Positions 3,925-45,156 of a stretch of 64,000 bases of DNA are shown piece by piece (the first letter of the stretch is position 1; each line of letters starts with the position of its first letter). The notes below the pieces were generated by a model. It saw only the letters and a program-made list of their open reading frames with translations. It made no database searches and had not been told where the DNA came from. This stretch comes from an uncultured Candidatus Saccharibacteria bacterium. GTDB taxonomy: Bacteria; Patescibacteriota; Saccharimonadia; Saccharimonadales; Saccharimonadaceae. The stretch spans positions 29,807 through 93,806 of the forward strand of contig CAMIMA010000001.1 of the NCBI GenBank assembly GCA_946222675.1, given 5' to 3'. Made by a program: the position numbers and the translations under genes.

Positions 3925-3956
3925 ATTGTACCCCCCCCCCCGCGAGCTTACGTCAA
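3925..3956 (-). promoter_or_regulatory. Putative sigma70-type promoter of the 2322..3863 gene: TTGACG, a 20 nt spacer containing G11, then TACAAT.
   Basis: On the minus strand the sequence is TTGACGtaagctcgcGGGGGGGGGGGTACAAT, about 60 nt upstream of the start codon. With G8 the spacer would be the optimal 17 nt. Confidence 0.45.
3931..3941. repeat. Homopolymeric C11 tract (G11 on the coding strand) inside the promoter spacer.
   Basis: The run cccccccccc+c is read directly from the sequence. Confidence 0.95.
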
Positions 3957-4416: not shown

Positions 4417-5394
4417 ATGAGAAATAACGACCCTTTCAAACCGGCGCTGGCGAGGCCGCTGTCTGATAGTGACCTAGCGAACGACCCGCATCCAGATAAT
4501 TTTTTGGCTGGCAATGACGGCTTAGGCCGCCGCTTAAACCGCCGCATGACGATGGACGGCGTAATGCAGCCTGAGTTACCAGAGACACCAGCTGCGCCTG
4601 CTACTGTTGAGCAACCGCAGCCAGTCGAGCAACCAGCCCCAAGTGCGCCCGCGGCACCTGATTTATCTAATTTGGCTAACTTGCCAGATGCCCCAGCGAC
4701 ACCTGACTTTAGTGACCTTAATGCTGCGCCAAATCAAGACCCATTAAACAACCCGCTTGCCACGCCAAACGAAGCAAGCACGCCAAGTGCAAAAGTCTTG
4801 CCGCCAGAGGCCGATGCTGCCTCTGCTACTGGCGACCAGAGCACTAATCTCTTCGAACAAGCCGCGCAAGTCGCCGACAACCAGAAAAAACCACCGAAAC
4901 TCGCCACGCCGAAGCAAAAGCAAGTGACTATTTCATTACTTACTATCATCTTCTTCCTATTGTTCCTTGCGAGCACCGGCGTGGCCGTGTGGTTTGGCTA
5001 TGACAATAATAAGAAGTCCACTGCGCTGGCCGATGCCCAAGCCAAGCTTGCCCAGTCGAAAGACTACTTGAGCGACAAGACCAATACCAGTACCAAGACA
5101 TCAACTCAGTTTGACGCCTTACAGGCCAAGATTGCCGACCTCACCAAGAAGAATGACGAAGCCAAGCAGCAGCTTGACGAGAAGCAAAAGAACATCGACG
5201 ACCAGAACAAGAAGATCGCCGACCTCACCAAGCAGAACGGCGACTTCCAGAACAAGATTAATTCCGACAAGGCCATCTCTGATAACATGCATAGCCTCGC
5301 TGTCACACTCTGCGCCAGCAACCCAAGCATTGCCGGCTCCGCGCCTTGCGTCCAGCTCAACTCACAGCAGCAGCCACCACAACCTGGCCACTAG
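4417..5394 (+). CDS. Pro-rich membrane-anchored coiled-coil protein with the N-terminal motif MRNNDPF.
   Basis: The 325 aa ORF has a GAGG ribosome-binding site, a P/A-rich N-terminal region, one TM segment (ISLLTIIFFLLFLASTGVAVWF) and coiled-coil heptads (KIADLTKKNDEAKQQLDEKQKNIDDQNKKIADLTKQ). Confidence 0.6.
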   Translation: MRNNDPFKPALARPLSDSDLANDPHPDNFLAGNDGLGRRLNRRMTMDGVMQPELPETPAAPATVEQPQPVEQPAPSAPAAPDLSNLANLPDAPATPDFSDLNAAPNQDPLNNPLATPNEASTPSAKVLPPEADAASATGDQSTNLFEQAAQVADNQKKPPKLATPKQKQVTISLLTIIFFLLFLASTGVAVWFGYDNNKKSTALADAQAKLAQSKDYLSDKTNTSTKTSTQFDALQAKIADLTKKNDEAKQQLDEKQKNIDDQNKKIADLTKQNGDFQNKINSDKAISDNMHSLAVTLCASNPSIAGSAPCVQLNSQQQPPQPGH

Positions 5395-7824: not shown

Positions 7825-8015
7825 ACGAACCATGTGGAGAGTGTTTGCTCAATGTCAAGTGCTAAAAGTAAATAGAAATTTAGACACTGGCTACATATTG
7901 AAAACAATCTTATAACATGGTACTATGCATACATATAAATGTGAAACGATGTTGTTTATGCCAATATATTATAGCAAGTCCAACAATAAGAAACTACTAA
8001 ACGAGGTGACAAATA

Positions 8016-9101
8016 ATGGCTGATAATTCAAGCCTAAGTGCTGCTAGAAACGCAAAGAACGACGAGTTTTATACCCAATATAGTGATATAGAAACAGAAA
8101 TGAATGCCTATATTGAATATAATCCCTGGGTATTCAAAGATAAAACTATCCTTCTCCCCTGTGATGATCCAGAATGGTCAAATTTCACTAAATATTTTGC
8201 ATCAAATTTTACAAGGCTTGGTATAAAAAAGCTTATTTCAACTTCTTATGCACAAGGAGTAGCAAATAAACAGCCTACATTATTTGAACTCAAGTCACCT
8301 TTGTATAATCCACAGCAACATGATACGCACGGTAAACTTTTTACTCTAACTCGTGATACAGATGGCAATGGCACAGTTGATACTGACGACATTGAATTTA
8401 CCGGATATCTTGAAGGTGATGGCGATTTTAGAAGTAATGAAGTAAAGAAGCTTCGTGACGAGGCAGATATTATTATTACCAACCCACCCTTTTCACTCTT
8501 TAGAGAATTTTTAGCGTGGATTTTGGAAGCCGATAAACAGTTTGTAATTATAGGCAATAAAAATGTTATTACTTATAAAGATGTCTTCCCTCTGTTAAGC
8601 GATAATAAAATTTGGCTCGGACCTGGTTTCCCTGGTGGAAACGCGTTCTTTAAAATTTCTAATGATTCTATTAGAAATTTTGCTGCTGGTGTTTACGATG
8701 ATAATACAGGCTTAGTGAAATTTCGTAATGTTGGATGGTTCACCAATATTGACCACGGAAAGCGTCACGAGAACCTGATACTTGACACAATGGAACATAA
8801 TCTTAAATTCAACAAAAAATTGCAGAAAAAGCTTGAAAAAGACTATGGAAAACTCGAATACCCTCATTACGACAATTATGACGCGATTGAAGTTCCGTTT
8901 ACCGAATGCATTCCATCAGATTATGACGGTGTGATGGGTGTGCCTATTACGTTTATGGACAAATATAATCCAGACCAGTTCGATATCGTAGCGTTTAGAA
9001 AAGGTGAGGATGGCAAAGATCTAGTCTTCACGAGAGAGAGAGAGAGAGAGAGAGTACAACCATACTTTCGTATCCTTGTACAACATCGATTCCGGGAATG
9101 A
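8016..9101 (+). CDS. N6-adenine DNA methyltransferase (gamma-class, motif IV NPPF). Its reading frame is ended prematurely after a (GA)11 tract.
   Basis: IIITNPPFSLFREF matches a (D/N)PP(F/Y) catalytic motif and there is an AGGTG ribosome-binding site. The ORF runs ...VFTRERERERVQPYFRILVQHRFRE* with the repeat at 9032-9053. Confidence 0.7.
   Translation: MADNSSLSAARNAKNDEFYTQYSDIETEMNAYIEYNPWVFKDKTILLPCDDPEWSNFTKYFASNFTRLGIKKLISTSYAQGVANKQPTLFELKSPLYNPQQHDTHGKLFTLTRDTDGNGTVDTDDIEFTGYLEGDGDFRSNEVKKLRDEADIIITNPPFSLFREFLAWILEADKQFVIIGNKNVITYKDVFPLLSDNKIWLGPGFPGGNAFFKISNDSIRNFAAGVYDDNTGLVKFRNVGWFTNIDHGKRHENLILDTMEHNLKFNKKLQKKLEKDYGKLEYPHYDNYDAIEVPFTECIPSDYDGVMGVPITFMDKYNPDQFDIVAFRKGEDGKDLVFTRERERERVQPYFRILVQHRFRE
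9032..9053. repeat. Dinucleotide simple-sequence repeat (GA)11 inside the 3' end of the methyltransferase gene.
   Basis: The run gagagagagagagagagagaga(g) is read directly; it encodes RERERER. Confidence 0.95.
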
Positions 9102-9292
9102 TAAAGAACGCAGAAGGAAAGATAAATGGGCATCCTACTTACGCGAGAATAACAATCATGCGCAAAAGACGCCTGTAGAAATTATTTTTCCACTAGCAAC
9201 AAATTTACAAAATGGGCTTATAAATGACTGCACTATTAATGGAAAGAAAACTTATGTCAGAATACTAATAAGGAAAGCAGAGGTAACTAGTT

Positions 9293-10459
9293 ATGAAAAC
9301 AACACTTGTAACTGATTGGACAGTTGGAGATATTTGCAAAGGCTTTATTTACGATAAAAACGAAGATAAGGGCCTATTCGGTTTAGACGGTAAGCTTATT
9401 ATTCAGCCTGAGTACCAAAGAAATTATATTTATGGTGATGGTAAAAAAGATGTTGCTGTTGTCGATTCTCTGCTCAAAGGTTATCCTCTTGGCTTAATTT
9501 ATTTTGTGAAGAATAATGACGGAATGTATGAAGTATTAGATGGGCAGCAGCGTATTACATCATTCGCACGTTTTGTTAATCAATCGTGGCCTTTTGCCGT
9601 TGAACGTGATGGCAAACCAAAATATTTCAACAGTCTTTCCAAAGATGAGCAAGATTTAATTAGTAATACAAAGCTTACAATTTACGTATGCGAAGGAACG
9701 CCTTCAGAAATTGAAGCATGGTTTGAAACTATTAACATTGCCGGAGTTCCGCTAGTAAAACAAGAACTAAGAAATGCGGCTTATCATGGTAGTTTTGTAA
9801 CGCTTGCTAAGGAAGAATTTTCAAATACTTCTAATTCTAAGATGAATATGTGGCAAACATATGTGAAAGGCGATCCTAAACGTCAAGCAATTCTTGAAAC
9901 TGCTCTCGACTGGGTGAGTGATGGAAAAATTGACGATTATATGGCTCAACATAGAAACGATGCAGATATTAAACAGTTAAAAAACCACTTTGATACTGTA
10001 ATAGATTGGATAGATTCAATATTTGACTATACTGGAAATGAAATGTGTGGCCAAGAATGGGGCAAGCTGTACACTACGTATCACAAAAATGCCTATAGTA
10101 AGGCTCAGATTGCAGAACGAGTATCTGCGCTTTTAGAAGATTCTCAAGTTCAAAATAAACGTGGCGTTATCGAGTATGTGCTTGGTGGAGAATCTGATAA
10201 AACTCTTCTTAGCATACGAGTATTTGACGAGAAAACAAAAAAGCAAGTGTACGCTCGCCAAACGGAAGCCGCTAAGGAAAAAGATACATCGAATTGTCCG
10301 CTTTGCGCTTTGGGTAGTGACAACAACTCCAAACGTATCTATAAATTGAGCGAAATGGACGCGGACCATGTAACAGCTTGGAGCAAAGGTGGTGCGACAG
10401 ACGAGTCAAATTGCCAAATGCTTTGCAAGACTCATAATAGAGCTAAAGGCAACAAGTAA
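9293..10459 (+). CDS. DUF262 (ParB-like, DGQQR) domain protein with a C-terminal HNH nuclease motif; a putative restriction endonuclease partner of the adjacent methyltransferase.
   Basis: [10 protein letters not shown] is the DUF262/GmrSD N-terminal signature. The C-terminus CPLCA...[12 protein letters not shown]...[16 protein letters not shown] is an HNH motif. A GAGGT ribosome-binding site is present. Confidence 0.7.
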
Positions 10460-10683
10460 CAAATTATATCTTGGTTGCAATGTAAAACGGTGTGAAATGC
10501 GTTACAGCTTTTTTGATATTTCTATCGTTAAAAAGTGCGCACCCAACATTCATAGTATGCACTCAAAAAAGTGTAGTTATACTCGAAGTTCACTTAAGCC
10601 ATATAAACAAAACAACCTATTGATGGCAAACGATTGAACACAATTTTTATTATATAGTCCTTCAACCAGCGCCGCCACCTCTG

Positions 10684-15875: not shown

Positions 15876-17945
15876 CTACTGGCGGAAGTCACCCAGCACG
15901 ACGCGGAAGGAATGTGCTTTATCTACCTTACCATTATATGCACTAGCGTAGAATAAACTCAGACCGCCTTTATCGCCACCACGAGTAAACCATAAATTAT
16001 AATTCCATTCATTATGAGTATCATTATAGCATCCACCAGCGAGCACCCCAAACGCCATATTCCACATAGTGCCATGTTTAGGACCGCATGCTGATAAATA
16101 TGTGCCACGGTCGTACTCTACTTCATGTAGAGATTGACCACCACAAGTTTCCCAAGTGCATTCATAGCGATTTATGGATGCAAAATGATATAAATTGGTA
16201 TATGGCGGCTTAGTGTCAAATGCCGTGTTTTTGTACTCTGGATTCAATACCATCCGACTAGGGTCGTCGCTGTATGCCGCCGCCACAACCTCTCTGCCAC
16301 CACCGGCCATATCATAAATGCCAGTCGGGTTGTTTGTAGTGCTAGCTAACTGACCAGTTGTCCCATTGTATGCTAATTGTGAATCAAGTGAACTACAGGC
16401 TGATTGCGTACCTACTTCGCCGCCATACTTATTGTTACTAAATTTGCCATTCTTACCACGCATAGCGCCGCAACCAGTTATGCCATATTTTAATTCTATC
16501 TTAGGTATATTCTTCTTCTTATCTCTTCTTTGATAAAAACCGCTTTGATTATTAGGCTCAACCTTATCAAATCCAGCTCCATATTGACTTGCCGACAAAT
16601 AAGCCGCTGCACCCCAGTCATTGTTGTTTATGATGCGCGAGCTATAGTGCGCCAAGTTGTTATTATTCTGTGCCGCCAATAGCGTACTTCCAACTGTATT
16701 ACCCGAGTCAACCACACCAAACGACTTCGCTGCCGCAAATAACTCCTCTAGCTTACCATTCACGCCATCAGCATCACCAGAAAGGTATTTCTGATTTGGC
16801 AAAACAGTTGGCTGTTTAAGGTCACCAGTGGTCTGAAATTTCGCAAACCAAATACCGTTGAGCTCCTTGGTGCCGAAGGTAAAGGCTGGATGAGTCGCCC
16901 AAGTACCGGCATCGCTTGGCTTACCGTCAATATAATCACGGTTCAAGTCGCACTCAGTACGGTAGTCCACTCCCTTGCTTGCGCAAACTGCTGGTATGCG
17001 CTTTGGATCGGTTGCTTTCTCAAAATGAATGTTAAAGTTCTGCTCTTTAACCAATTTATCGGTATGGTCGCGACGCATCACCTCATAAGCATAGCGCGGG
17101 ATGTATACCCAGTGGCCCAAAATATCAGCCGGATCAACCACCACGCTCTTGTCTTTATACTTCGCGTAAGCCTCCTTCTTCACCGTCACGGCGTTAGCCC
17201 ACTGCTTATTGGCGTAATCATACCAGCCGCTATTGGCATCTTCTGGGTTGGCTACACTGGTCCACTGTGCATCAGTAGTACTACCCGTGTATTTTACTGG
17301 CACCATGTCTGGGTCGATGTCAATCTTACAGTCGTTATCCGCAGAACCCGCCCGACAAATAGACTTGCTCACCTCTGGTGGCTTCGGCGCTAGCTTTGGT
17401 GTTACTGTGTAAACTACATGTGTAATATACTCGCCGGCTGGTAAATTAGTACTGTCTATATTGGCAGCAAATGTGACCAGTTTGGTGCATTCGGTTACGC
17501 TCTTGCAGCCGTCTAGAGTATTCGGCGTGACGTTGGCAAGACGCAATGGAGCAGATTTGGCAGGAACCTGACTATATTTATCTGATGATTGGTCAAGCGA
17601 ATAGCCCCACTGATTAGCCGGTAGCGTAGACGGAGCACCTTTCTTCACGGCAGTAATTTTATAATTACTATTAGCCGAATTTACTAAATCCTGCTTGTCT
17701 GCAGCCATTGTAATACTAAAGCCATCGTGCGAGCTTGATTTAACAACAATGTTAGATGTAGCCTTATAAAGATCATCTTGTGGCGTCAGATTTGCCGCTT
17801 GTTCTACGGTAATGCTGATTGGGTTAGTCTGGTTAGATGGCTCTGCCGCATGCGCCGGCATCGCAAATAATCCCAGCGCAGCTACTAACGCCGCGCCAGT
17901 ATAGATTACCCCCCCCTGTGGCGTCACTAAATAATTTCGGCTCAT
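15876..17945 (-). CDS. Large secreted surface protein of family B: shared N-terminal domain plus an FGE-sulfatase-like C-terminal domain. A G8 tract lies in the signal-peptide coding region.
   Basis: The signal peptide is MSRNYLVTPQGGVIYTGAALVAALGLFAMPAHA. Blocks conserved with the 34037, 43021 and 45240 proteins include PVKYTGSTTDAQWTSVANPED, ADILGHWVYIPRYAYEVMRRD and HPAFTFGTKELNGIWFAKFQTTG. The C-terminus is RGG...AHSFRVVLG. Confidence 0.7.
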   Translation of the reverse strand: MSRNYLVTPQGGVIYTGAALVAALGLFAMPAHAAEPSNQTNPISITVEQAANLTPQDDLYKATSNIVVKSSSHDGFSITMAADKQDLVNSANSNYKITAVKKGAPSTLPANQWGYSLDQSSDKYSQVPAKSAPLRLANVTPNTLDGCKSVTECTKLVTFAANIDSTNLPAGEYITHVVYTVTPKLAPKPPEVSKSICRAGSADNDCKIDIDPDMVPVKYTGSTTDAQWTSVANPEDANSGWYDYANKQWANAVTVKKEAYAKYKDKSVVVDPADILGHWVYIPRYAYEVMRRDHTDKLVKEQNFNIHFEKATDPKRIPAVCASKGVDYRTECDLNRDYIDGKPSDAGTWATHPAFTFGTKELNGIWFAKFQTTGDLKQPTVLPNQKYLSGDADGVNGKLEELFAAAKSFGVVDSGNTVGSTLLAAQNNNNLAHYSSRIINNNDWGAAAYLSASQYGAGFDKVEPNNQSGFYQRRDKKKNIPKIELKYGITGCGAMRGKNGKFSNNKYGGEVGTQSACSSLDSQLAYNGTTGQLASTTNNPTGIYDMAGGGREVVAAAYSDDPSRMVLNPEYKNTAFDTKPPYTNLYHFASINRYECTWETCGGQSLHEVEYDRGTYLSACGPKHGTMWNMAFGVLAGGCYNDTHNEWNYNLWFTRGGDKGGLSLFYASAYNGKVDKAHSFRVVLGDFRQ
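17919..17926. repeat. Homopolymeric C8 (G8 on the coding strand), encoding the GG of TPQGGVI in the signal peptide of the 15876..17945 gene.
   Basis: Read directly; the tract is in frame in this state. Confidence 0.9.
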
Positions 17946-36981: not shown

Positions 36982-38208
36982 CTAGTAACATGGCGACCCA
37001 ATCGCCTCAGCAAGAGTGTCGGCAACTTTCTTAGCGTCGGAACTAGCATAACCCTGCAACTCATCTACCTGACGACAGTCGTAATAGTACTCGTGATCGT
37101 GGTCGTAATAGTGATTACACTTCGACTCGTCCGGCACATTAGTACAGCCCATTGCATGCAGACCAACCCAGAAGCCATTGTCGTATTCCGCAAAACTATC
37201 TAAAAGACCTCCAACGTCACTATATTCACATTTATGAGTTGTGGTATCTACTGAACCGCAAAAATTTATATAGTTACCTTGCCTAGAATAAACTGGAACG
37301 AAAGCAAATACTTTAACCATGTCATCCAAGTCTAACTTAACTGATTCTGCAGTAGAACCGTTCCTATATATAGACAAATACTTCTGTTCGCCAGACTTAG
37401 TCAAAATGGCAATATGTGCCCAGGTCGCACGGTAATAAGTACTGTAGTCAAACCAATTATTTCGTTTCCATGCAGTAGCCTTAATCGCATACCATGAATC
37501 GTCCTTCCATACAACCATTACAGTATTTCCACGGTTACTGAAAGCAGCGCAATTATGCCAATCACCATTACTGTAATAGCATCCATTAGTCGTCCACTTT
37601 GGTGGCTCTGGTGCTGGTGGGGTCGGCGGAACGTATGGCTCGGGGTCTGGTGCGGGCGGTACGTATGGCGCAGGTTTGCTAGTGGCGGTGTAAGTTAACG
37701 TTGTAGAGTAATAACCAGAAGCGCTTTTCTTGGGTTCAATATTAGCGCCGAAAGTAATTGGAATACCGCAATATGAGACTCTATCACATACACCCTTTAC
37801 TTCATTTGTTACGTTTGCTAATATTGCAGCATTGTACGATGAACTCGGTATTTCATTAAAAGTACCACTGTCACCTGTCATACTGTAGCCCCACTGGTTA
37901 GCGCCAAGATATCTATTATGTCCCGAAACACTATTAATTACATAGTTTGAGTCACTACTGTTAACTAGGTTAGGATTATTGGCATACATACTGAGCGTAA
38001 AGCCGTAACTATTACTGTTGTCTACAGTAACAACGTTTTTGTAGTGGAGATATTTGCCGCTACCGCGCAATGTAGCGTTTGCTGTATCAAGGCTGATACT
38101 AATGTTGTCTGCGTGGGCTGGCGCGGCGAAACCTAGCAGGGTTATCGCGAGAGCGATAAGGCTTAAAAATCTACCCCCCCCGCAGCTATTTGGTCTTAGT
38201 ATGCTCAT
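36982..38208 (-). CDS. Secreted surface protein: family B shared N-terminal domain fused to a Cys-rich C-terminal domain of unknown function. A G8 tract lies in the signal peptide.
   Basis: The likely start is the second ATG (MSILRPNSCGGGRFLSLIALAITLLGFAAPAHA), with GGAGGA 10 nt upstream. The N-terminal domain contains GFTLSMYANNPNLVNSSDSNYVI...ANQWGYSMTG. The C-terminal domain is PPKWTTNGCYYSNGDWHNC...ATWAHIAILT...GSPCY. Confidence 0.7.
   Translation of the reverse strand: MSILRPNSCGGGRFLSLIALAITLLGFAAPAHADNISISLDTANATLRGSGKYLHYKNVVTVDNSNSYGFTLSMYANNPNLVNSSDSNYVINSVSGHNRYLGANQWGYSMTGDSGTFNEIPSSSYNAAILANVTNEVKGVCDRVSYCGIPITFGANIEPKKSASGYYSTTLTYTATSKPAPYVPPAPDPEPYVPPTPPAPEPPKWTTNGCYYSNGDWHNCAAFSNRGNTVMVVWKDDSWYAIKATAWKRNNWFDYSTYYRATWAHIAILTKSGEQKYLSIYRNGSTAESVKLDLDDMVKVFAFVPVYSRQGNYINFCGSVDTTTHKCEYSDVGGLLDSFAEYDNGFWVGLHAMGCTNVPDESKCNHYYDHDHEYYYDCRQVDELQGYASSDAKKVADTLAEAIGSPCY
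38174..38181. repeat. Homopolymeric C8 (G8 on the coding strand) encoding GGG in the signal peptide of the 36982..38208 gene; in frame.
   Basis: Read directly from the sequence. Confidence 0.9.
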
Positions 38209-38624: not shown

Positions 38625-39793
38625 CTAATAGCACGGCGACCCAAGCGCCTCGGCAAGAGTATCAGCAACCTTCTTGGCGTCAGAACCATGATAATCCTGC
38701 AACGCATCTAGATTATCATCACATCTGTAATCACACTTCGACTCGTCCGGCGCATTGGTGCAGCCCATTGCATGCAGGCCAACCCAGAATCCAGCGCCAG
38801 AGTTATCGCCATAAGACTTCATACTCTCATTAAAAGTACTTCCAACATCACTGTATTCACATTCATGAGTGGTTGTATCTACATAACCGCAAAAATTTAT
38901 ATAGTTACCTTGCCTAGAATAAGCTGGAACGAAAGCAAGTATTTTAATTATGTCATTCGAGTCTAACTTAACTAATTCGTGCCCATGTATAGATAAATAC
39001 TTCTGCTCGCCAGACTCAGTCAAAATGGCAGCATGCGCCCAAGTCGCATGGTAATAAGTGTAAGTTCTGTAATTAAACCAACCACTCCATGTAGCATAAC
39101 CAAACCCATACCATGAATTGTCCTTCCATACAACTGGCCTAGCATATGTATCTGTAGGCATCCCGACAGTGCAATTATGCCAATCACCATTACTGTAATA
39201 GCATCCATTAGTCGTCCACTTTGGCGGCTCTGGCGCTGGAGCTGGTGGGGTTGGTGGCACATATGGTGCTGGCTTACTGGTGGCAGTGTAGGTTAGACTG
39301 GTGCTGTAGCTGCCAGTTGGTAGGCGCTTCTGGTCTAGGTTGGCGCCAAAGGTAAGATAGAGTGTGCAATCGTCAACACTGGTGCAGTTCCCTTTGCTGT
39401 AGCTGGTGACGTCGGCAAGGGTTGCGGATGAGACTGAATTGAACGTAGTAGCATCCTTGCCCATGCCGTAACCCCATTGATTAGCAGCAAGTTGCTGGTT
39501 GGTGCCAGATACGGAGCCTATTTTATAAGTGGAGTCTTTATCGTTTACCAGATTAGGTTGGTTAGCATGCATGCTGAGTGTAAAGCCATAGGTGTTGCTG
39601 TTACGTACTCGCACGCTACTGTTGTGTTTGTAGAGGTTGCCACTACGCTGCAGGGTAACAGTGGTCGTGTCGAGGTCGATTGAGATGTTGTCCGCGTGGG
39701 CTGGCACCGCAAAGCCTAGCAGGATTATCGCGAGAGCGACAAGACTTAAAAATCTACCCCCCCCCCGCAGCTGTCTAGTCGTAATTTATTCAT
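38625..39793 (-). pseudogene. Paralog of the 36982 surface protein (shared N-terminal domain plus Cys-rich C-terminal domain) that is frame-shifted in its signal-peptide region by a G10 tract; a phase-OFF contingency gene.
   Basis: The ATG at 39791-39793 gives MNKLRLDSC, then G10 leads to a stop (ggg ggg ggg gta gat ttt taa). With G8 or G11 the read-through ...GGGRFLSLVALAIILLGFAVPAHADNISI joins the 360 aa ORF 38625..39707. Confidence 0.75.
39757..39766. repeat. Homopolymeric C10 (G10 on the coding strand) causing the frameshift in the 38625 paralog.
   Basis: Read directly: 4 C at 39757-60 plus 6 C at 39761-66. Confidence 0.9.
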
Positions 39794-43020: not shown

Positions 43021-45156
43021 CTACACCGTAGGCGCGAGCGCGACGCGGAACGCAGTGTTGTTGCTGCTTTGGCCATCGAAACTGTCGACGTAGAAGATGC
43101 CACTATTCAAGCCTCGAGCCTCGCCACCCCGTAAGAACCAATGATAAGATGGATAATTCTGCCCTAAGAGATAGGCCGTTTGGTTAAGCCACATACTAGA
43201 TCCGGTACTACTTGAACCATTGTGAGTTTCATAGAGAGCTTGGCCACCACAGGTTTGGTAGGTACATGAGTTGAAGTCTTTAAAGTTGTATGTGTTGACG
43301 TATGGTGGGTGAGCAGCGTTAGAACCAAAGTACTGGTTGGTGTCTGAGTTATATAAGTTATCACTGTAACTAGCTGCAGTGAATTCATAGCTACCGCCAG
43401 ACATGTCGTAGATGCCATAGACATTGTTGGTGGTACTGGCGAGTTGACCAAGGGTGCCGTTATAAGCACGCTGTGGGTCGCTTGAACTACAAGCAGATTG
43501 AGTGCCAAGAGCGCCTCCGCCACGGTAACTGCTGGTATTGCCGTTAGCTTGTGGGCCGCAACCGGTAGTACCATAAGTATATTCCTTGCCGTTATCGTGG
43601 CTATCGTCCTGGCTGTTTATTTGGACGCCGTTATAGCCGGCACCGTACTTACTGGCGCTGAGATAAGTTGCAGCACCCCAGTCGTTATTGTTAGCCATAT
43701 GGGAACTAAGTTTAACAAGATGGTGATTGTTTTGAGATGGTACTGTGTAATCTGTTTTACCGCCAAAATTATTGCTATCTACTACACCAAAAGTTTTAGC
43801 AGTAGTATACATACGACCGATATTGTATGATGCAGTGTACCAACCAGACATGTGAGCTTCGTTTGGCAAGATAGTTGGTTGAGTGTCAGTGCCGGTGGTT
43901 TCAAACTTAGCAAACCAGATACCGTTGAGCTCCTTGCTGCCGAAAGTGAAGGCTGGGTGGGTAGCCCAAGTGCCGGCGTTGCTTGGCTGGCCCTTGATGT
44001 AACTGCGGTCGAGGTTACACTGGGTGCGGTAATCTTTACCGGTCGTGCCACAGGCAGCTGGGTGACGCTTTGGTGTGGTCTTCTTTTCAAAGCTAATCAG
44101 GAAATTCTGGGCTGGTACCGGATTATCTGTGCCGTCACGGCGCATGACTTCATAAGCATAGCGTGGGATGTAGACCCAGTAACCGAGGATGTCGGCTTGG
44201 TCAACTACCTTAGTCTGATTCTTATATTTACTTGGGTCCTTCACTGTTACAGCGTTCGCCCACTGCTTGTTATTGTAGTTATACCAGTTACCTTGATTGG
44301 AACTATCCTCGGGGTTCGCGAGGCTGGTCCACTGAGCATTAGTGGTGCTGCCAGTGTACTTAACTGGTATCATATTGGCATCTAGGTCGACTTGGCAGTC
44401 GTTCTGCGGGTCACCCGATTTGCAGGTGGTTGGGTCAACGGTTGGCGCTGGTTTTGGTTTAGCAGTGGCCGTGTACATAATGGCGGTGCTATAACTACCA
44501 CTGGCGAGCTTTGCTGGATCGACGTTGGCCGCAAAAGTGACGGACTTGGTGCAGTTCGCAGGGTTAGTGCATCCGGCTGGCTTAGCTTTGGTGACGTCGG
44601 CCACCACGGCTGGGGTAGCTTGGGCGCCGGCTGGGACGGCGCTAAAGGTCGTGGCAGACTTATTGAGAGAATAGCCCCACTGGTTGGCATTTAATGCAAC
44701 TGGTGTGGCGCTTGGGGTGGCAGAAATTTTGTGAGTCGAGTCTTTACTGTTTATAAGGTCAGCAGTATCGGCTTGCATAGTGAGATTAAAGCCGTAAGGT
44801 TTGCCAGTTGTAACCTTAACGTTTGTGGTGGCTTTATAGAGTGTGCCGGTTGGTTGGAGTGCTGCATTCTGGTCAACCGCGATGCTAACGGTGTTATCGT
44901 CAGCAGCATAGACTGGTGCAGTGAGGATAAATGGCACAGCAACTAAAGCAAACAGACCAAACGCCGCCCCGCGGGCGAGACCGCCCGCTAATAAATTCTT
45001 ATAATTGGCTTGGCTATCGGCTACCGACGCAAAGTTATGGTTAGCTGTTGGTGCCAAGGGCGCCGGAGTGGCTATTTTACCCCTACTTTTAGTAGTTTGA
45101 GATAAGAGGCTTAAAAGTCTACCCCCCCCGCAGCTGTTAAGTCTTAGTATATTCAT
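43021..45156 (-). CDS. Large secreted surface protein of family B (shared N-terminal domain plus FGE-sulfatase-like C-terminal domain); a G8 tract lies in the N-terminal coding region.
   Basis: The likely start is MNILRLNSCGGGRLLS (ATG 45154-45156) with the conserved TGTTATAGC promoter region upstream. Conserved blocks include CQVDLDANMIPVKYTGSTTNAQWTSLANPED and HPAFTFGSKELNGIWFAKFETTG. The C-terminus is FLRGGEARGLNSGIFYVDSFDGQSSNNTAFRVALAP. Confidence 0.7.
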   Translation of the reverse strand: MNILRLNSCGGGRLLSLLSQTTKSRGKIATPAPLAPTANHNFASVADSQANYKNLLAGGLARGAAFGLFALVAVPFILTAPVYAADDNTVSIAVDQNAALQPTGTLYKATTNVKVTTGKPYGFNLTMQADTADLINSKDSTHKISATPSATPVALNANQWGYSLNKSATTFSAVPAGAQATPAVVADVTKAKPAGCTNPANCTKSVTFAANVDPAKLASGSYSTAIMYTATAKPKPAPTVDPTTCKSGDPQNDCQVDLDANMIPVKYTGSTTNAQWTSLANPEDSSNQGNWYNYNNKQWANAVTVKDPSKYKNQTKVVDQADILGYWVYIPRYAYEVMRRDGTDNPVPAQNFLISFEKKTTPKRHPAACGTTGKDYRTQCNLDRSYIKGQPSNAGTWATHPAFTFGSKELNGIWFAKFETTGTDTQPTILPNEAHMSGWYTASYNIGRMYTTAKTFGVVDSNNFGGKTDYTVPSQNNHHLVKLSSHMANNNDWGAATYLSASKYGAGYNGVQINSQDDSHDNGKEYTYGTTGCGPQANGNTSSYRGGGALGTQSACSSSDPQRAYNGTLGQLASTTNNVYGIYDMSGGSYEFTAASYSDNLYNSDTNQYFGSNAAHPPYVNTYNFKDFNSCTYQTCGGQALYETHNGSSSTGSSMWLNQTAYLLGQNYPSYHWFLRGGEARGLNSGIFYVDSFDGQSSNNTAFRVALAPTV
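45122..45129. repeat. Homopolymeric C8 (G8 on the coding strand) encoding GGG in the N-terminus of the 43021 gene; in frame.
   Basis: Read directly from the sequence. Confidence 0.9.

Follow-up and report, generated by a model that had tools for sequence, protein, structure and literature searches.

The methylase–nuclease module and its repeat

The 64,000-nucleotide stretch of DNA analysed here (the window) belongs to contig CAMIMA010000001.1 of an uncultured Candidatus Saccharibacteria bacterium. It carries a two-gene module in which the gene for a DNA methyltransferase (methylase) contains a run of eleven GA dinucleotides close to its 3' end and is followed by the gene for a DUF262–HNH nuclease. 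We describe how the number of repeat units, n, sets what is read at the C-terminus of the methylase, and what this may mean for the pair. The features of the module are collected in Table 1.

The open reading frame (ORF) at 8016-9101 matches Pfam family PF13651 (EcoRI_methylase; 1.2e-119, 400.1 bits against a cut-off of 26.4) over residues 7-334, which is above the gathering threshold over most of the profile. Residues 4-358 align to positions 7-328 of the 332 in the PADLOC MTase_II profile (3e-89). Both the NPPF motif and the family's terminal strand (Y-x-R-I-x-I) are present, and the gene product is, on these similarities, an EcoRI-family N6-adenine DNA methyltransferase. The first-pass annotation had placed the (GA)11 tract inside an adenine methyltransferase gene with NPPF, and these matches agree with it. 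Within the family, variability is greatest between NPxQFEI and the last strand. The tract is the sole dinucleotide run of at least six units in the window. NCBIfam held a model for neither methylase nor nuclease. A PDB sequence search gave no match for the methylase and no solved relative of the nuclease, and a Foldseek search of the PDB with a model of the methylase in its present frame (isoform A, below) returned only generic Rossmann methyltransferases with E > 0.01.

The partner nuclease matches GmrSD_N (1.8e-20) and HNH (PF01844, 6.7e-8) in Pfam and, over its full length, the PADLOC REase_II profile (1.1e-84). In nearly every one of the 80 genome loci retrieved, which come from many phyla, the gene immediately after the methylase encodes a homolog of it. 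Type II systems have separate methyltransferase and endonuclease genes in conserved adjacency, as here. GmrSD-type Type IV enzymes combine DUF262 with DUF1524 and act alone, whereas this nuclease has HNH, gives no DUF1524 match and is always paired with a methylase. Because of the adjacency in nearly all 80 loci, the REase_II match and the presence of HNH rather than DUF1524, we read the pair as behaving as a conserved, putative Type II-like restriction-modification module, so that the restriction-modification-like pairing suggested by the first-pass annotation stands, with PADLOC profiles matched on both sides (MTase_II and REase_II). The DUF262 domain leaves room for nucleoside triphosphate-dependent or modification-sensing behaviour of the nuclease.

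Table 1. Features of the methylase–nuclease module (positions in the window)
Feature	Position	Strand	Basis or remark
Low-GC island with two-gene restriction-modification module	7830..10680	.	between prmC and membrane-protein gene
Predicted EcoRI-family N6-adenine DNA methyltransferase gene, present frame (isoform A, 361 amino acids)	8016..9101	+	PF13651, PADLOC MTase_II, M.EcoRI collinearity
NPPF catalytic motif (motif IV) of methyltransferase	8481..8492	+	residues 156-159
(GA)11 tract, then G; encodes (Arg-Glu)n loop and sets downstream frame	9032..9053	+	read from sequence
Tail A (frame 0; n = 8, 11, 14): VQPYFRILVQHRFRE	9054..9101, stop 9099-9101	+	stretch read in all three frames
Tail B (frame +2; n = 7, 10, 13): S-TTILSYPCTTSIPGMIKNAEGKINGHPTYARITIMRKRRL	9055..9178, stop 9176-9178	+	Pfam alignment, natural example P0003
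Tail C (frame +1; n = 6, 9, 12): 86 codons	9055..9315, stop 9313-9315 within nuclease gene	+	Pfam alignment, natural examples
Shine-Dalgarno-like GAGGT, 8 nucleotides upstream of nuclease ATG	9280..9284	+	read from sequence
DUF262(GmrSD_N)-HNH nuclease gene, 388 amino acids	9293..10459	+	Pfam, PADLOC, adjacency
DGQQR motif of nuclease	9539-9553	+	sequence
HNH motif of nuclease, C-terminal	10364-10438	+	sequence

The repeat sets the 3' reading frame and varies between strains

The methylase gene was rebuilt in silico with n = 7 to 14 repeat units and the tails were read in each frame. The frame is given by n mod 3, where 2 leads into tail A, 1 into tail B and 0 into tail C. Isoform A, the present state at n = 11, has 361 amino acids and ends in ...RVQPYFRILVQHRFRE; isoform B has 386 at n = 10 and ends in ...STTILSYPCTTSIPGMIKNAEGKINGHPTYARITIMRKRRL; isoform C has 433 at n = 12 and 431 at n = 9. 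According to the first-pass annotation, the methylase terminates 22 codons after the repeat. The stop at 9101 is as given, but it lies 15 codons past the end of the tract (about 23 past its start). The +1 frame, said to stay open to the TGA at 9313-9315 and to overlap the nuclease ATG at 9293, does so, and the expected fusion of methylase and extension at (GA)12 is indeed obtained, as it is at (GA)9. Only this one extension frame had been considered productive. A third frame had been overlooked, which is open for 40 codons to the tail B stop and ends in a family-type tail, KINGHPTYARITI, giving three productive frames in all. Natural proteins bear out the reconstruction: P0004 (433 amino acids) and P0002 (431 amino acids) are identical to the predicted C fusions, P0008 is a further natural C form, and P0003, with 386 amino acids, is a natural B form.

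Database proteins that are 97-99% identical to that of the window have 359, 386, 429, 431 and 433 amino acids, equal to the products for n = 8, 10, 6, 9 and 12. Four of these were traced to contigs, with n = 12, 6, 8 and 10; together with the window (n = 11) they represent five conspecific strains. The claim that the repeat controls the 3' frame of the methylase is supported. The window and the four contigs have a common gene order (L31, prfA, prmC, methylase, nuclease, membrane protein, signal peptidase). The contigs align to the window at 96-97% identity over 7.3 kb with one to four gap openings, the tract being essentially the sole insertion or deletion. The nearest named genomes are also Candidatus Saccharibacteria, namely a metagenome-assembled genome (MAG) at 97% protein identity with n = 7, and the TM7-H1 isolate E1 with n = 10. 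Across 23 related loci the tract is perfect, with n from 5 to 14. A perfect, slippage-prone repeat that lies in an ORF and shifts the frame with each unit, combined with polymorphism between close strains, places the locus among the simple-sequence contingency loci. The premature termination by which classical phase variation switches ON and OFF is not seen, all three frames yielding complete family-type C-termini.

In a few homologs (P0042, P0070 and P0071) the tract is interrupted (TREKERE...). Such genes would be fixed in the C frame, which hints that switching is lost from time to time.

Each frame ends in a family-type tail

Frames A, B and C end in PYFRILV, TYARITI and TYVRILI, respectively, which are versions of one motif. 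In the two family alignments, which hold 48 and 49 homologs, its Tyr and Arg do not vary (Y350 and R352 in isoform A, Y414 and R416 in isoform C). When the variants are scored against Pfam, B reaches 408.7 bits and C 402.7, compared with 400.1 for A, and the PF13651 alignment runs to profile position 345 of 345 in the B variant and to 344 of 345 in the C variant.

For tail A the most direct comparison is with the genuine M.EcoRI, which was retrieved from an E. coli plasmid, where it lies beside R.EcoRI, and has the C-terminus ...KFRKGVDEKDLSINGKCPYFRILIKNKRLQK. The window protein, with the C-terminus ...AFRKGEDGKDLVFT(RE)nRVQPYFRILVQHRFRE, is collinear with M.EcoRI to the end. When the C-termini are set against each other, ...KDLSINGKCPYFRILIKNKRLQK of M.EcoRI stands opposite ...KDLVFT(RE)nRVQPYFRILVQHRFRE, the hairpin turn SINGKC being replaced by the repeat-encoded Arg-Glu stretch. 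In addition, the annotations of Gardnerella pickettii and Fannyhessea vaginae treat proteins with an A-type C-terminus as full length. We conclude that each frame is predicted to supply a complete family-typical C-terminus, within an overlap in which 45 nucleotides are coding in three frames and 77 in two.

The view of the first-pass annotation that the present state is a truncated, switched-off methylase is not supported, given the collinearity with M.EcoRI, the PADLOC alignment to position 328 of 332 and the full-length annotated homologs. That annotation also named a finding that would speak against its own reading, in which homologs end where the present ORF ends and the downstream frame is unlike methylase C-termini. 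Homologs do end there, but the downstream frame resembles such C-termini. Since all three frames give complete tails, we would expect none of the conflict that had been foreseen between an active nuclease and a switched-off methylase. The nuclease is unbroken from residue 1 to 388 whether the methylase of the locus is in the A, B or C state, which fits a protective role of all three isoforms.

The three tails are conserved across phyla

The design TTYAC(GA)nG followed by tails A, B and C is also found in Gardnerella pickettii, Mobiluncus porci and Bifidobacterium pongonis, in Alloscardovia, Actinomycetaceae and Bulleidia MAGs, and in further metagenome contigs. The system is common to vaginal and gut bacteria. 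The set compared comprised 23 complete loci, which reduce to 14 distinct overlap sequences from at least seven genera and three phyla, Saccharibacteria included. In all 23 every frame is open and has Y-x-R-[ILVM]-x-[ILVM] near its stop, whichever frame is in use; seven loci are in the A state, eight in B and eight in C. Of 65 tract-less relatives used as a control, just three have an alternative-frame ORF that ends in the motif. Each tail has a core that does not vary in the frame to which it belongs, for example VQPYFRILV (10 loci) and GMIKNAEGKING..TYARIT.

Nucleotide identity among divergent pairs is 91% in the triple-coded 45 nucleotides, 86% in the double-coded 77 nucleotides and 56% where C only is read, with gene bodies at 73-78%. 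The window and locus L005 differ at 26 of 125 overlap positions, and when 26 substitutions were placed at random in 20,000 simulations, 0.5% of the outcomes kept all tails. In L005, as in L008, the overlap has diverged by 18-23%, yet three open frames with their motifs are retained (p about 0.005, by simulation). These patterns are evidence, at the level of sequence, for selection on all three tails.

A census of proteins clustered at 90% identity gave 77 clusters, 46 of C, 16 of A and 15 of B form. We did not use this census as a sign of a fitness difference, because the variable distal tail splits the C forms into more 90% clusters.

Reading frame and the nuclease start

At every locus the C stop falls within -23 to +25 nucleotides of the nuclease start, whereas the A and B stops lie about 190 and about 115 nucleotides upstream of it. 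In the window the +1-frame stop overlaps the start of the nuclease ORF by 23 nucleotides. Only the C frame ends there, and translational coupling at the nuclease start is therefore possible. Two observations weigh against coupling. The nuclease has its own Shine-Dalgarno sequence, GAGGT, and the RNA at 9170-9320 is no more structured than shuffled sequences (z = +1.3), with no occluding structure predicted. A search for an internal promoter on the plus strand between 9100 and 9290 found no promoter-like site. Because neither a promoter-like site nor an excess of RNA structure was found, coupling is put forward here as a possibility.

A weak 9-bp hairpin with G-U pairs can be drawn at 9288-9314. 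It would sequester the nuclease ATG (9293), and it pairs with the C-stop region (9313-9315); taken as a whole, this part of the RNA is no more stable than shuffled sequence.

A proposed three-position switch and its alternatives

We consider it likely that the tract and the three tails behind it form a hypermutable three-position C-terminal switch. A perfect (GA)n encodes an Arg-Glu loop that immediately precedes the enzyme's last beta-hairpin, and behind it lie three tail cassettes in series, each with its own frame and its own stop (A at 9101, B at 9178, C at 9315). In the mechanism that we propose, slipped-strand mispairing would alter n within populations and so move the ribosome between tails. 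The A cassette would serve as a short linker when B is read, and A and B together as a longer linker when C is read. Every frame supplies the invariant terminal strand (Y-x-R-[ILVM]-x-[ILVM]), such that the methylase is predicted to be complete in all states, and the cell would stay protected from the adjoining DUF262-HNH nuclease in every one of them. The consequence of switching would most likely be an alteration in methylase properties or in nuclease expression. It is a more doubtful proposition, which we raise only tentatively, that the isoforms differ adaptively and so make three functionally distinct enzymes or system states, beyond a safety net.

Several points count against this interpretation. 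The variation in n is seen only between strains or samples that are about 3-4% diverged. The HMMER alignment to Pfam stops at profile position 307-313 of 345 and is not extended over tail A, and because of this the case for tail A rests on the M.EcoRI and PADLOC alignments. The AlphaFold2 models, built on shallow alignments (48 and 49 close homologs), have a mean predicted local distance difference test score (pLDDT) of 65 for isoform A and 58 for isoform C; they are unreliable in the C-terminal half (pLDDT 30-55), and a structural role of the tails is not supported by them. Recent horizontal spread could account for part of the high conservation of the overlap region. Finally, the catalytic activity of all three isoforms, like the functional consequence of the switch, is something that we infer from the sequence.

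A conventional ON/OFF switch of the phasevarion type, with (GA)11 as a truncated, inactive state and the frame with the 80-codon extension as the only ON state, would account for a tract that shifts the frame and for a long form that abuts the nuclease gene. It also draws some strength from the Pfam alignment of the present form, which ends at 307 of 345, and from the predominance of C among the 90%-identity protein clusters (46 of 77). However, tail A aligns to the very end of M.EcoRI with the invariant Tyr and Arg in place, and loci in the A or B state whose nuclease is intact occur as often as those in the C state (7, 8 and 8). Tails A and B are moreover conserved across phyla when unused, which is not required of an OFF frame, and we regard this explanation as very improbable. 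Comparably improbable is the proposal that tails A and B are non-functional relics of recombinational cassette stacking, which look conserved only because of recent horizontal spread of the 3' module, and that the repeat merely encodes a loop of variable length and switches nothing. Stacked dead tails do lie downstream of the stop in the tract-less loci L075 and L033, and the island does move between phyla (94% nucleotide identity between Saccharibacteria and Gardnerella). Those relics are, however, unreachable via a repeat, whereas the tract is perfect, with n = 5-14, in every lineage; the overlaps of L005 and L008 have kept their frames and motifs despite the 18-23% divergence (p about 0.005); and the more frames are read, the higher is the conservation.

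The variation in n might instead have arisen from sequencing or assembly artefacts at a low-complexity site, given that most of the related sequences are from short-read metagenome assemblies. A tract of 10-28 bp nevertheless fits well inside single Illumina reads, and the differences recur across independent samples and assemblers, including the finished chromosome CP026537 (n = 10) and the isolate genome GCA_000414625 (n = 11). Every n, furthermore, gives an open frame that ends in a proper tail, and an artefact is hardly credible. The three-position switch is the reading that we prefer.

Origin of the tails and related architectures

Loci L075 (at about 5090-5130) and L033 (at 2499-2720) have no tract, and in the interval from the methylase stop to the start of the nuclease they hold a dead older tail. 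L033 also has a second copy of the conserved FEILG anchor and a broken methylase frame. These loci are two of the three alternative-frame control cases mentioned above, their dead tails lying downstream of the current stop. Because L075 and L033 hold dead second tails, and FEILG is doubled in L033, tails in this family are evidently exchanged by stacking, the new cassette being placed ahead of the older one. The design probably originated when the stacked cassettes of the tract-bearing clade were made reachable via the repeat.

Some homologs have two dinucleotide tracts in one gene (L087, 3551-3572 and 3784-3803; L004, 5068-5082 and 5284-5301). The upstream (AG)11, which follows GRFYV, selects a fourth tail (..RRLYSRLIIQKKK), a dead end of 10 amino acids, or read-through into a duplicated GVMGVPITF module, and downstream of this module come the (GA)n tract and its three tails (A, B and C). 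The upstream tract of L004 is interrupted.

Loci of the Gardnerella type have a small ORF (45-66 amino acids) that ends at or just before the methylase start (L082, 2364-2501; L083 and L084, 2319-2501; L087, 2291-2491). It resembles a controller (C) protein, with an HTH_26 match in L082. An upstream controller gene was also considered for the window and rejected: it has no such ORF, and the upstream region is unrelated and not conserved.

Genomic setting

The module sits in an island (7830-10680) with a GC content of 36.7%, compared with 49% for the whole window and about 55-60% for the flanks, and the island occupies the same position in conspecific Saccharibacteria strains. Against the same module of Gardnerella pickettii GCA_000414625 (L082, 2487-4956), the island shows 94% nucleotide identity along 1.7 kb, and another 0.6 kb is about 90% identical. 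Because of the 94% identity, the comparison points to a recent transfer between an epibiont of the candidate phyla radiation (CPR) and Actinomycetota of the same (vaginal) niche. Actinomycetota of this shared niche may be the hosts of the Saccharibacteria epibiont. Viral contigs were scanned for the tract with its flanks and gave no match; carriage by phages is therefore not indicated.

Elsewhere in the window there are two long homopolymers, C11 at 3931-3941 and C10 at 39757-39766, both intergenic, the latter about 50 nucleotides upstream of the GTG start (39707) of a minus-strand ORF of 360 amino acids. Three C8 runs occur at 17909-17916, 38174-38181 and 45122-45129. These C runs could be further contingency loci of this genome.

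Comparison with known systems

In Haemophilus influenzae, contingency loci of the lic1 and lic2A type have a tetranucleotide repeat with several start codons behind it; these lie in different frames, and the output is graded instead of binary. As at the present locus, more than one frame around the repeat is productive; in lic1 and lic2A, however, the alternatives are 5' starts, and one frame is still OFF. In the NgoAV Type I system of Neisseria gonorrhoeae, truncation of HsdS affects specificity. The hsdS gene contains a poly-G tract (PMC9577141), and slippage there yields alternative functional forms of a restriction-modification component instead of simple loss, as we propose for the window. 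NgoAV differs in having two states, in acting through a Type I specificity subunit and in having no three-frame design.

Repeat-controlled methylases that switch ON and OFF include the Type III mod phasevarions and M.MmyCI of Mycoplasma mycoides, controlled by (AG)12, the same dinucleotide as in the window (PMC5909438, PMC3498834). The phasevarions (modA and others of Haemophilus, Neisseria and Helicobacter) and M.MmyCI are like the window methylase in that a perfect repeat in the methyltransferase ORF, with strain-variable n, sets the frame. In these systems, two of the three frames stop prematurely, and restriction depends on Mod, so that OFF is harmless (PMC5909438, PMC3498834). In the window, by contrast, about 15 codons separate the tract from the end of the methylase, which is of Type II, the nuclease is separate, and all three frames are complete. 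The closest concept is the C-terminal phase variation proposed by Snyder et al. (2010) for 3' homopolymer tracts of Helicobacter canadensis (PMC2823697), where a late repeat alters the C-terminus without abolishing the protein, as in the window. The alternative tails of H. canadensis are short and unrelated, and their value is not established (PMC2823697), whereas those of the window are homologous, conserved across phyla and encoded by overlapping triple and double coding.

M.EcoRI, the prototype of PF13651, has the N-terminal DEFYTQ, the NPPF motif and the terminal ...KDL-x-hairpin-PYFRILI in common with the window enzyme. M.EcoRI has a single tail and no repeat, and its partner R.EcoRI is of the PD-(D/E)XK type, while the partner in the window is a DUF262-HNH nuclease. 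The latter resembles the Type IV enzymes GmrSD and BrxU (DUF262 with DUF1524; PMC4619093, PMC12707154) in joining DUF262 (DGQQR) to a His-Me finger nuclease domain. It departs from them in having PF01844 HNH for DUF1524, in its length of 388 amino acids and in always adjoining a methylase, and the PADLOC Type II REase profile (1e-84) matches it far better than any Type IV-like model. In the literature we found no description of a repeat with homologous, conserved and complete C-termini in all three frames, nor any of this system in Gardnerella or Saccharibacteria.

Implications

Accounts of phase variation in restriction-modification systems normally present it as ON/OFF switching, which is regarded as safe only if restriction requires the methylase (Types I and III). 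A Type II pair whose nuclease is free-standing, and which keeps a hypermutable repeat with a complete C-terminus in every frame, would represent a different solution, and would imply that what is selected is either switching between isoforms or tolerance of slippage that cannot be avoided. The locus would also be a compact natural case of selected triple overlapping coding.

If the isoforms were indeed functionally distinct, a Type II restriction-modification system would have, in a single dinucleotide repeat, a safe selector with three positions. Were the isoforms to differ in methylation specificity or efficiency, the result would be a three-state phasevarion that never loses self-protection; alternatively, the states could differ in nuclease output, since the C frame is the only one that brings ribosomes to the start codon of the nuclease. 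In that case, the genes with two nested tracts (L087 and L004), which have four tails and one dead end, would be the same device at a higher order.

The design also occurs in Gardnerella isolates for which methylomes have been published, which makes this a directly testable system; strain DNF01198P has its gene in the C state. The near-identical module in a vaginal Saccharibacteria epibiont and in Gardnerella may, in turn, bear on the methylation identity that the epibiont shares with its probable actinobacterial hosts.

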